Below are positions 17,026 through 32,067 of a DNA stretch of 34,250 nucleotides, one piece after another (positions within the stretch are counted from its first letter, which is position 1; each line of letters opens with the position of its first letter). This DNA comes from an uncultured Gammaproteobacteria bacterium. GTDB lineage: Bacteria; Patescibacteriota; Patescibacteriia; UBA2591; UBA6264. The position numbers were made by a program, and so were the translations under genes. The stretch lies in contig CAZXPA010000002.1 of NCBI GenBank assembly GCA_964642485.1, positions 1-34,250 on the forward strand. Reading direction: 5' to 3'. The notes below the pieces were generated by a model. That model did no database searches. It was not told the origin of the DNA and worked only from the letters and a program-made list of their open reading frames with translations.

Positions 17026-17043
17026 AATTTTTCAATAAAATAG

Positions 17044-17118
17044 TGGGCGTACCCCGACTCGAACGGGGGACCTTCTGCGTGTCGAGCAGACGCTCTAAAC
17101 CAACTGAGCTATACGCCC
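17044..17118 (-). tRNA. tRNA-Val(GAC) with an unusual C33, no encoded CCA
   Basis: GGGCGTA..TCTGC-TCGACAC-GCAGA..CCCCG-TTCGAGT-CGGGG-TACGCCC-A. Confidence 0.8.
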
Positions 17119-17151
17119 AACAAAAAGTAACCTCACTGCTAGCCTCCCAAG

Positions 17152-17226
17152 TGGTGGGCGTAGATGGATTTGAACCATCGACCTTTTCTTTATCAGAGAA
17201 ACGCTCTACCCCTGAGCTATACGCCC
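17152..17226 (-). tRNA. tRNA-Ile(GAU), CCA encoded
   Basis: GGGCGTA..TTTCT-CTGATAA-AGAAA..GATGG-TTCAAAT-CCATC-TACGCCC-A-CCA. Confidence 0.9.
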
Positions 17227-17409: not shown

Positions 17410-17627
17410 GTTTTATATACACACTTTCAAAAATGCTGAGCATTAAATGAGCAGGTTCTTATAAATTCCGGGTAAGAGATGAAGAATTTGTCAAAGGCAG
17501 AGAGAGCCAACCTTTACCTTACCTTGAATCTTATATGATTCAAGGGTCGACCTCGTTACTGTTAAACAGCAACTGAGTCCTCTAAATGAGGTGATCCACC
17601 CACAGCTTCCGCTACGGGTGCCTTGTT

Positions 17628-17939
17628 CATGTTATTCCCTATGTTTCCATGGGCACGGACTATATCTTCACCCCCTTCTTTCGATCGAAAGGAGGGGGGC
17701 CAACGTATGATAACAGTTTGATTCTCTAATAAACTTAGAGCCCCTGCTATCAAAGGTATAAACCTTAAGTCTCTACGGGGCGAAGCACTCAACGCCTTGA
17801 GTGCTCGCTTCCCACGATGTTGCCTTCATGCCTTTATTTTAGCATAAAATGACTAAAAAATAAAGAGTAAGGGTTCACCGTTATAGTTGGGTTTTTCTTA
17901 AGGATTACTCCCTAAGGTCGCAATTTACAGGTTGTAACC
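17628..17939 (-). mobile_element. Group I intron (312 nt, no ORF) at E. coli-equivalent position about 1498
   Basis: Interrupts AAGTCGT|AACAAGG. The 5' exon ends in U and the intron ends in G. Core-like GTAGAGACTTAAGG and GAAGATATAGTCCGT elements. GCGAC can pair with exon GUCGU, with a U-G pair at the splice site. Confidence 0.8.
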
Positions 17940-18358
17940 ACGACTTCGCCCCTGTTACCAATCCTACCTTATTCCCGCGAACGCGGACTTTCGGGTATTA
18001 CCGGCTTCCTTGGCGTGACGGGCAGTGAGTACAAAGTTTGGGAACGTATTCACCGTACCGTAGCTGATATACGGTTACTAGCGATTCCAGCTTCATGAGG
18101 TCGAGTTGCAGACCTCAATCCGAACTGAGACCGGCTTTGATGGGATTAGCTCCGCCTTACGGCTTTGCGACCCTTTGTACCGGCCATTGTACCACGTGTG
18201 TTGCCCAGGGCATAAGGGCCATGCTGATTTGACGTCGTCCCCACCTTCCTCCGGCTCATCACCGGCAGTCCTCTTAGAGTGCCCAACTTCTTAAAAGAAT
18301 GATGGCAACTAAGAGCAAGGGTTGCGCTCGTTTCCCCACTTAAGGGTACACGTCACCG

Positions 18359-18389
<31 letters not shown>

Positions 18390-18519
18390 ACTAGGTTCCG
18401 ATTTTACGGTCAGTCAACCTTTCGGCTAACCTACAACCTAGCGAGTCAAGCCCTGGTGAGGTTCTTCGCTTAGCATCGAATTAAACCACATGGTCCACCG
18501 CTTGTGCAAACTCCCGTCT

Positions 18520-18551
<32 letters not shown>

Positions 18552-18932
18552 TCCCAGGCGGGATGCTTAACGCGTTAGCTTTTTTACTGCGGCACTGAAA
18601 GGGTCGACACTTCCAATGCCCAGCATCCATCGTTTACGGCGTGGAATACCGGGGTATCTAATCCCGTTCTCTCCCCACGCTTTCGTGTCTCAGCGTCAGA
18701 ACTGTTCTAGCAAGCTGCCTTCGCATTCGGTGTTCCTGCCGATATTAACGGATTCTACCCCTACACCGGCAGTTCCACTTGCCTCTCCCAGTCTCTAGTT
18801 TAATAGTTTTTCTGGCGCTCCCAATGTTGAGCAAAGGGCTTTAACCAGAAACTTATTAAACCGCCTACACACGCTTTACGCCCAGTAAATCCGGATAACG
18901 CTTGTCGCCTTCGTCTTACCGCAGCTGCTGGC

Positions 18933-19380
18933 TGTATACTCATAATAGAGTAATTGCTACGGACTATATCACAATCCTTTTTTATAAATAAAAGGACCCT
19001 CGGCGTATGATAACAGTTTATAATTCCAGATTATCTGGCACCTGTTATCTCATCGCTTAATATTTAGCTTTAAGCGAATCAGTCTCTGAGGGGTTAATCC
19101 CGACTTGTCGGGACAACTTCCCTGCTGATTGCCTATAAGCTGTTTCGTCATAAACGAAATGCAGCAAAATCTTAAAGTTTAGATAAGAATTTTAACCTTT
19201 TCAAACTTCAAGGTTCTGGCAAAGCCAGGTTCTTATAGTTTGGCAATAAGATATTATACCTTTCAAACTTCAAGGTTCTGGCAAAGCCAGGTTCTTATAG
19301 GTTTCCAGCATATAAGCCAAGTTTTTCAACTTCGATTACTCGAAGAAGTCGCGCTCTTTGATAAGACGAAAATTAATTGC
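18933..19380 (-). mobile_element. Group I intron (about 448 nt, no ORF) at E. coli-equivalent position about 516
   Basis: Interrupts CTTCGT|GCCAGCAGC. Core-like CTCAGAGACTGATT and GTGATATAGTCCGT. Shares aaactgttatcatacg with the other intron. Boundaries are ambiguous by 1-2 nt. Confidence 0.75.
19195..19300. repeat. 43-44 bp direct repeat (period 63 bp) inside the position-516 intron
   Basis: acctttt-caaacttcaaggttctggcaaagccaggttcttatag at 19195-19238 and again at 19258-19300, differing by one T. Confidence 0.9.
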
Positions 19381-19821
19381 ACGAAGTTAGCTGCGACTTA
19401 TTCCTGGGGTACACTCAACCGAAGCTTGTTCCCCCAGAAAAGCAGTTTACACTCCGAAAAGATTCATCCTGCACGCGGCGTCGCTCCTTCAGCCTTTCGG
19501 CCATTGAGGAAGATTCTTGACTGCAGCCCCCCGTAGGAGATTGAGCAGTGTCTCAGTCTCAATGAGGCGGATCATGCTCTCACACCCGCTACCCGTCATC
19601 GGCTTGGTAGGCCATTACCCTACCAACAACCTGATGGGCCATAAGCTCCTCAGAAAGCGCGATTGCTCGCTTTACTAAGCACTCAATATGAGTGCTCAGC
19701 ATATGGGGTATTAGCCTCGATTTCTCGAGGTTATTCCCCTCTTTCCGGCAGATTACTAATGTGTTACTCTCCCGTTTGCCACTGCCTGATAAATCAGGCC
19801 GTTCGACTTGCATGCCTTAGA

Positions 19822-19861
<40 letters not shown>

Positions 19862-19933
19862 TTAAAAAAGATTTGATCTAATAAATAAAAGGAATAGATT
19901 GGCTAATTCTCTACCTTTGACAAATTCTTCATT

Positions 19934-31715: not shown

Positions 31716-32067
31716 GGGGGTGAAAGGCATCGATAGGAAGATAGAAATGAAAGCGGCTCTTTGTCTTGAGAAAGACATAAAATTTCTCAAAGAAAATAAT
31801 TGCCAACGAAAAGTTAGCTTTTGCTGTTGCTTAAAAAAGCTGCAGCCGCTAAGACTAAAGACTCCTACTATTTAGTTATTAGCGTCAATTCAGTGGGATC
31901 GGTGTTCTGAAGACCTGAACCAGAATACTTAAAAAAATCAGGCTAAGATTTTAGAGATTTGTCTGGTTTAAGCTCTAAAATCCGAAAAAAATTAAACTAG
32001 ACTATAAGAGTAGATGCTCCTCATTAACACTTCTTAGACGGGAGTTCAATTCTCCCCACCTCCACCA
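31716..32067 (+). ncRNA. ssrA: tmRNA (SsrA), tag ANEKLAFAVA
   Basis: 5' GGGGGTG pairs with 3' CACCTCC-A-CCA, giving G3:U70. T-arm GGGAGTTCAATTCTCCC. Tag reading frame GCC AAC GAA AAG TTA GCT TTT GCT GTT GCT TAA at 31802-31834. Confidence 0.9.

Follow-up and report, generated by a model that had tools for sequence, protein, structure and literature searches.

A group I intron with a probable terminal adenosine at position 516 of a bacterial 16S rRNA gene, and a family of similar introns at the same site

To our knowledge, group I introns are defined in part by a terminal guanosine (omegaG), held to be nearly universal, and it is by this base that annotation tools place their 3' boundary. Redundancy among omegaG, P9.0 and P10 is known from other introns, and the presence of group I introns in the rRNA genes of CPR bacteria (Patescibacteria) is said to have been first noted by Brown and colleagues in 2015. 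These CPR rRNA introns often carry LAGLIDADG genes, spread by homing and are absent from transcripts (Tsurumaki et al. 2024, PMC11270868), and the same survey includes a LAGLIDADG_2-encoding insertion at 16S position 1498 (PMC11270868). The intron described here resembles the CPR 16S and 23S introns in having its core at a conserved rRNA site, and differs from those of the survey in coming from a marine organism; in the survey the splice sites were left unmapped and a missing terminal G goes unmentioned (PMC11270868). Natural group I introns without omegaG are rare, the precedents being the hexacoral mitochondrial ND5-717 intron and an intron of the Coxiella burnetii 23S rRNA gene. The former ends in A and its exons are perfectly ligated in vivo (PMC6545197); like the intron studied here it has A in place of the terminal G and a compact conserved catalytic core (PMC6545197), but it is an intron of a mitochondrial protein gene, obligatory, vertically inherited and without a homing endonuclease, and its giant P8 insertions and back- or trans-splicing set it apart from our rRNA intron. 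The Coxiella intron is reportedly self-splicing and 'lacks the canonical omegaG' (Raghavan et al. 2007), being to that extent comparable to ours, which is also a group I intron of a bacterial rRNA gene and probably lacks the canonical terminal G. The insertion site itself, after U516 of the SSU rRNA, is also that of eukaryotic nuclear S516 introns, for example in myxomycetes (PMC9223047); these belong to nuclear rDNA and are likened to the bacterial family by site alone.

The window analysed here, a 34,250-nucleotide stretch of DNA from an uncultured bacterium, contains a 16S rRNA gene that is interrupted twice:

17582 to 19867, minus strand: 16S rRNA gene including two introns (Rfam SSU_rRNA_bacteria, 1324.9 bits; 3' end approximate)
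18933 to 19380, minus strand: group I intron at site S516, 448 nt and ORF-less, with preferred ends U516(19381)|G19380 and A18933|G517(18932)
17628 to 17939, minus strand: second group I intron, 312 nt, after U1498 (GUCGU|GG...CAUG|AACAAGG), canonical

Once spliced in silico the gene measures 1530 nt, a length as approximate as its 3' end, which reads GGAUCACCUCAUUUA, and it is at most 90% identical to any of the loci fetched, the nearest being at 89-90%. Within the window no second 16S gene was seen, and no 23S rRNA gene was detected across its 34 kb. A perfect 19-nt inverted repeat (CCTTTGACAAATTCTTCAT, at 19914-19932 on the plus strand and 17479-17497 on the minus strand), for which the chance expectation is none, flanks the whole 16S gene with both introns and is probably a precursor processing stem. 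The gene is followed by tRNA-Ile(GAU) and tRNA-Val(GAC) (17043-17226), the usual pair being Ile/Ala; the window also holds a tmRNA gene (31716-32067, 143.8 bits) and 11 further tRNA genes dispersed over both of its strands.

In the Rfam alignment an insertion of 456 nt falls at SSU model positions ~510-520, within the conserved 515-530 region, and the insert proper (18933-19380, minus strand, 448 nt) splits the gene at CUUCGU|GCCAGC, at the place where the first-pass annotation of this DNA had located the interruption. In the RNA sense the 5' boundary reads ...GCUAACUUCGU(19381) followed by G(19380)C(19379)AAUUAA..., and the 3' boundary ...GAGUAUACA(18933) followed by G(18932)C(18931)CAGCAGCUGCGG, and excision of exactly 448 nt gives back GUGCCAGCAGC. 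Because GC is present at both of its ends, the insert can be cut out in three ways (U|G..A|G, G|C..G|C and C|A..C|C), and none of the three combines a U at −1 with a terminal G: the boundary puzzle recognized in the first pass is therefore a real one. An assembly error, such as a collapsed GG, was ruled out, as the identical junction occurs in four runs from three studies of seawater, marine and aquatic metagenomes (X1-X4); Logan contigs of X1, X2 and X3 span the two junctions without a mismatch, and the 3' junction is further spanned, with 2 mismatches, by a contig of X4. In run X1 the depth is 8-10 in the intron and the flanking contigs alike, and a matching intron-less joint was looked for in the same run and is absent, the intron being thus fixed in its population.

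Intron-less alleles, for which the earlier annotation had proposed a search among relatives, do occur. The DNA of run X3 contains a form in which the same 448 nt are skipped (joint 18930->19379, with a 2-nt ambiguity), and the same joint, reading GUGCCAGC, is found in RNA contigs of the seawater metatranscriptomes X25 and X32. Since the latter have 5 mismatches in the 5' exon, they come from a relative, perhaps an intron-less one, and not from the window organism; they record the uninterrupted rRNA of a close relative and are no demonstration of splicing of the window intron. A search for RNA runs holding the window 16S returned only runs sharing conserved words with it (share at most 0.19), four of which, when mapped to the window, gave a depth of zero across the intron. 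RNA searches with two unambiguous homologues (L046 and L113) returned only DNA runs of their populations, and groundwater metatranscriptomes mapped on a further homologue (L111) gave conserved-exon matches only.

On the evidence of its sequence, the insert is a group I intron without an ORF, located at position 516 of the 16S, in agreement with the initial call. The Rfam model Intron_gpI (RF00028) matches 18957-19373 over its full length with 32.9 bits (E 1e-6 for the 521-nt stretch searched), and matches the second intron at 17637-17938 with 39.5 bits (E ~9e-9); both scores lie below the gathering score of 50 and were obtained in a permissive search. For the S516 intron the score is lowered by the sizeable insertions that P5 and the P7-P3' interval contain. 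On the RNA strand the intron has no ORF of 60 aa or longer, and the window copy accordingly has no intron-encoded homing endonuclease. The core helices P1, P2, P3, P4, P5, P6, P7, P8, P9.0 and P9, including the P3/P7 pseudoknot, could all be placed by hand; the elements needed below are, from 5' to 3' in the RNA:

19379 to 19384, minus strand: P1 5' strand, predicted, made of exon UCGU (19384-19381, U516 being 19381) and intron G and C (19380-19379), pairing with GCGCGA
19349 to 19354, minus strand: internal guide sequence GCGCGA, in which G 19352 wobbles with U516
19330 to 19345, minus strand: P2 hairpin CUUCGA-GUAA-UCGAAG
19316 to 19321, minus strand: P3 5' strand CUUGGC, partner GCCGAG at 18999-19004
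19305 to 19310, minus strand: P4 5' strand UGCUGG, partner UCAGCA at 19123-19128, 100% of cells paired in 37 sequences
19132 to 19301, minus strand: P5, CCUAUAAG (19294-19301) with CUUAUAGG (19132-19139), enclosing a variable insertion of ~150 nt
19183 to 19300, strand not assigned: 62-nt tandem duplication, 1.9 copies, within the P5 insertion (TRF score 206)
19080 to 19086, minus strand: P7 5' strand G-A(bulge)-GACUG, in which G 19084 is the G of the guanosine-binding pair
19009 to 19076, minus strand: P7.1 (19054-19076) and P7.2 (19009-19049), extra hairpins between P7 and P3'
18975 to 18996, minus strand: P8 hairpin UCCUUUU...AAAAGGA, outer pairs 83% paired and covarying
18961 to 18966, minus strand: P7 3' strand UAGUCC, in which C 18962 pairs with G 19084
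18958 to 18960, minus strand: P9.0 5' strand GUA, immediately 3' of P7, pairing with UAC at 18934-18936
18937 to 18952, minus strand: P9 hairpin UACUC-UAUUAU-GAGUA
18934 to 18936, minus strand: P9.0 3' strand UAC, adjoining the last intron base
18933, minus strand: terminal intron A (omega position)
18931 to 18932, minus strand: G517 and C518, start of the 3' exon, forming a 2-bp P10 with the guide

This structure was mapped on a MAFFT alignment (A2) of 37 ORF-less S516 homologues, in which standard pairs are found in 79.3% of the cells, as compared to 70.5% in shuffles and 35-47% in slid controls, and the covariation score amounts to 0.233 against 0.121 for the shuffles, a value reached by 0 of 500. 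P3 is paired in 88-98% of the cells, with UA<->CG and GC<->CG<->AU<->UA exchanges, and P6 in 95%; P4 and P7 are fully paired, and the P7 pairs are invariant. The guanosine-binding G-C pair next to the bulged A is present (CAG-A-GACU / AUAGUCC, G19084-C18962). The P5 insertion is variable, as in run X3 intron variants have 17 or 29 nt in place of 19134-19299, and the 62-nt duplication, which contains a copy of the P5 5' strand, is itself polymorphic, since a contig of X2 skips 19199-19260 and retains one copy only. An intervening sequence excised by RNase III, without ligation, was ruled out, the insert having a group I core and not one long stem.

With the 5' splice site at U516 the last base of the intron is A18933, a terminal G being obtained only with a G at −1; so placed, the intron has a last base other than G and an intact catalytic core. 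The location of the insertion between U516 and G517 (E. coli numbering) is given alike by the Rfam SSU alignment, by the intron-less joints and by the joint of the homologue L113 (see below). We consider it likely, from the comparison of homologues, that the boundary is U516|...A18933|G517 and the intron a naturally occurring omegaA one; cutting after U516, which leaves an intron ending in A, was one of the options listed in the first-pass annotation, and it is the one favoured by the comparative evidence. Indeed, the U516·G wobble is invariant in the aligned S516 introns (37/37), as is the G515-C pair, and the guide is laid out alike in the A-ending and G-ending classes, with 5'-GG(C/U), the wobble G and then the complement of the local exon, a part which covaries with the exon (GCGA, GCGAGG, GCAGAG, GCGUAG and others). 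Pairing of the GG(C/U) with GCC of the 3' exon is possible and gives a P10 of at least 2 bp in 46 of 48 A-ending and 24 of 26 G-ending introns; in the window the 5' GC of the guide (19353-19354) pairs either with intron positions +1/+2, extending P1, or with G517/C518 as P10. Within the canonical class the +1 base is a G, plainly intronic, in 26 of 27 introns, so that the window G following U516 is the expected +1 base, and its likeness to G517 comes from the pairing of the two with one guide position.

The 3' end can be read from P9.0. Perfect complementarity between the 3 nt that follow GAUAUAGUCC and the 3 nt preceding the terminal A is found in 42 of 50 unique A-ending tails (mean 2.82 of 3), as compared to ~1 bp in registers shifted by −2, −1 or +1, and the pairs covary over at least 15 types (AAA/UUU, AUG/CAU, GAA/UUC, AUA/UAU, GAU/AUC, ACA/UGU, GUA/UAC, GAC/GUC and others), the helix ending exactly one base 5' of the terminal A. 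According to what is reported by Michel and co-workers for the T4 sunY intron, it is through P9.0 that the last nucleotide is brought to the active site. The same P9.0 register, (G/A)UG...CAU, occurs in six unique position-1498 introns, that of the window among them, where it is followed by omegaG; A18933 is therefore the omega nucleotide by position. An altered G-binding site was rejected as the cause of the terminal A, for the A-ending and G-ending classes do not differ in their P7 strands CCUCAGAGACU / GAUAUAGUCC; the terminal A thus occurs without the specificity switch known from engineered ribozymes. In the Tetrahymena ribozyme, a G-to-A change at the terminal position is a severe handicap to exon ligation if the G-binding site stays as it was, and the unchanged site of the window intron accordingly counts against omegaA, as do its P10 of only 2 bp and its Rfam score below the gathering threshold.

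An unchanged G-binding site favours a terminal G, which would be retained if both splice sites were one base downstream, with cuts after G19380 (a G at −1, in Watson-Crick pairing with a guide C) and after G18932 as omegaG. For the window sequence alone this gives the same product, GUGCCAGC, as the omegaA reading, and it can be extended to 51 of the 55 A- or C-ending homologues, because their +1 base is G; moreover, there is a report of a tRNA intron family in which the −1 base is C and not U (bioRxiv 10.1101/2020.01.27.920355). Such a displacement cannot, however, apply to L031, L046 and L113, short of an A in their rRNA at the universally conserved position 517. These three introns, which belong to different clades, have at +1 an A paired to a guide U, and since A and not G follows U516 they admit a single boundary, GUGCCAGC being restored only by U516|A...A|G517. 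In the case of L113, 949-nt contigs run across both junctions in three groundwater runs, and the joint of an intron-less allele, found in four runs, skips exactly 837 nt with zero overlap. Also, there would be no reason for the invariance of the U516·G wobble, a known determinant of the 5' site, if cleavage occurred one base downstream of it, and G-ending introns with the same 5' architecture are cut after U516. At the other end, the displacement would put an extra A between P9.0 and omega, unlike in the position-1498 introns, and would make the base before the final G an A in 53 of 55 introns, at a position where canonical introns vary (G13, U7, A6, C1). Altogether, we regard a displacement of both sites as unlikely.

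Both canonical rules, U(−1) and a terminal G, would be respected by cutting after U516 and taking G18932 as omegaG, and nothing in the window sequence alone conflicts with this; the mature 16S would then be without G517, with the junction CUUCGUCCAGC, or else the gene or the intron would be defective. We find this very improbable, as G517 is within the universally conserved 530 loop and is kept in the intron-less DNA alleles and in the rRNA of close relatives, which read GUGCCAGC, and P10 uses G517/C518, and not C518/C519, with the guide. In fact, with no second 16S in the window, equal intron and flank depth in X1 and no matching intron-less joint there, this copy most likely has to work. Decay is also a poor fit to a large A-ending class with intact homing endonuclease genes and a conserved P9.0, and under these alternatives L031, L046 and L113 would be left with an rRNA having A517 or lacking G517.

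We thus infer, for the window intron, ends at U516 and A18933 and a splicing pathway as follows. The 5' splice site after U516 (19381) would be set by the U·G wobble of the predicted P1, in which exon UCGU and intron GC face GCGCGA (19349-19354), and the first step would be an ordinary attack by free guanosine, as expected from the unchanged guanosine-binding pair of P7 (19084/18962). The 3' splice site would lie between A18933 and G18932 (G517), so that the intron would end in A instead of omegaG. In the second step this A may be held at the active site by the 3-bp P9.0 (GUA 18958-18960 / UAC 18934-18936), which abuts P7, and also by the short P10 formed by G517 and C518 with the guide, and ligation of the exons would then yield the normal GUGCCAGC.

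Homologous introns were collected by a genome scan with one genome per species and the pattern GATATAGTC-N(13-43)-CCAGCAGCNGCGGTAA, the junction base being left free, which gave 54 S516 loci, mostly in Patescibacteria, with other hosts labelled Omnitrophota, Bdellovibrionaceae, Planctomycetales, Gammaproteobacteria and Nanoarchaeota. The canonical ...G|GCCAGC is present in 40 of the 54, and a single G in the remaining 14 (preceded by A in 13 and by C in 1). A metagenome scan limited to loci with a non-G base before GCCAGC added 72 more. Public genomes and metagenomes together yielded 82 S516 introns, 27 ending in G, with both junctions, and 55 unique ones (duplicates removed) not ending in G, of which 53 end in A and 2 in C; three loci with a mis-detected 5' exon (L023, L008, L092) were left out of the counts, and four others (L055, L061, L072, L102) are intron-less matches, where GCCAGC directly follows U516. 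Of the two C-ending introns, L017 and L085, the former keeps the P9.0 register (AUA/UAU), and therefore the omega position appears to tolerate C. Comparison of these sequences indicates that the window element is a member of a widespread family of S516 introns ending in A, rarely in C, in Patescibacteria and other uncultured bacteria. A literature search found no description of an omegaA family, and the A-ending S516 family is apparently undescribed; the Coxiella intron is reportedly a single one, of one species and at a 23S site, against dozens of S516 sequences across phyla.

Intact genes for LAGLIDADG homing endonucleases are found in many of the A-ending members, the window copy having the variable P5 insertion instead; for example, the metagenome locus L084, whose intron of 890 nt is the nearest relative of the window intron, has an intact LAGLIDADG_2 gene (E 3e-37), as does L113 (E 2e-34). 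Given these intact genes and the conserved P9.0, the A-ending introns are not decaying relics. In a crude neighbour-joining tree without support values, A-ending introns are scattered among G-ending ones, and the G-ending L013 has its first 45 nt identical to those of the A-ending L091 and L117 with a wholly different P9 module. This suggests, as far as sequences can tell, repeated switching between G and A or exchange of modules, and in the latter case S516 introns would have recombined their 5' and 3' halves; module exchange is as likely as repeated point changes, and a plain G-to-A change between sister introns was rejected, since the P9 modules of L013 and L091 differ. The two loci whose 16S is closest to that of the window (~89-90%), L053 and L084, have different S516 introns, a short canonical one of GCCAGCCC type in L053 and an A-ending LAGLIDADG type in L084, and the type of intron therefore does not follow host relatedness. 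The record of L053 is labelled Gammaproteobacteria, which looks doubtful.

The second intron of the gene, at position 1498, has U at −1, a terminal G and no ORF, its P9.0 (GUG/CAU) being followed by the terminal G, and the first-pass annotation had noted the likeness between the two introns and proposed that one of them derives from the other, through reverse splicing at a similar UCGU site. The likeness itself holds: AAACTGTTATCATACG (16 nt) and GATATAGTCCGT (12 nt) are exact in both (alignment A1), as are GCGAC and the upstream exon UCGU. The 12-mer corresponds to the P7 3' strand and the start of P9.0, and the 16-mer, which in the S516 intron is AAACUGUUAUCAUACG at 19004-19019, in the region of the extra hairpins, to the 3' strand of the second of these and the junction to P3'. 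Two extra hairpins between P7 and P3' are also present in the 1498 intron, and absent from most 1498 introns elsewhere, such as L037. The exact 16-mer is found only in the window pair, other homologues having at least 2 mismatches, and the C of GCGAC, unpaired in this S516 subfamily, would pair at the 1498 site GUCGU. The strings held in common, the exon context and the fit of that C would speak for a recent duplication within this gene, but for each intron the nearest relative occupies the corresponding site of another genome: over the 5' and 3' core segments the distance is 0.22 from the window S516 intron to that of L084 and 0.23 from the window 1498 intron to that of L119, as compared to 0.30 between the two. 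S516 and 1498 introns are in fact separate, widespread, site-specific families with their own 3' ends; 1498 introns of other genomes have in common the guide UUGCGAC and the 3' end ...ACAUG, and S516 relatives in other genomes have GGCGCGAC in common (alignment A2). GCGCGAC also occurs in S516 introns of other genomes, and the sharing of GCGAC follows from the UCGU exon context, the guide covarying elsewhere with the local exon. Furthermore, a reverse-spliced 1498 intron would import a terminal G. Recent seeding within this 16S gene is thus not supported by the sequence comparison, and we consider it highly unlikely. Since the 16-mer is unique to the pair and the unpaired C fits the 1498 site, a local exchange or an old switch of site between the two introns is possible.

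Group I introns in the rRNA genes of these bacteria, and isolated cases of introns ending in A, were already known; what would be new, if the above is correct, is a natural family of rRNA introns, dozens in number, with A as the last base. Such a family would account for failed automatic boundary calls in these 16S genes and would bear on 16S reconstruction in Patescibacteria and similar uncultured bacteria, because the S516 insertion falls within what we take to be the annealing site of the 515F primer, which is in wide use. It would also provide many natural sequences in which the choice of the second-step site can be tested without a terminal G. On balance, the results incline us to the view that a large, mobile and persistent family of bacterial 16S introns has dropped the 'universal' terminal guanosine, having A, or rarely C, as its last base, with the 3' splice site set by a tight P9.0 stacked on P7 together with P10, and with the guanosine-binding site kept for the first step.
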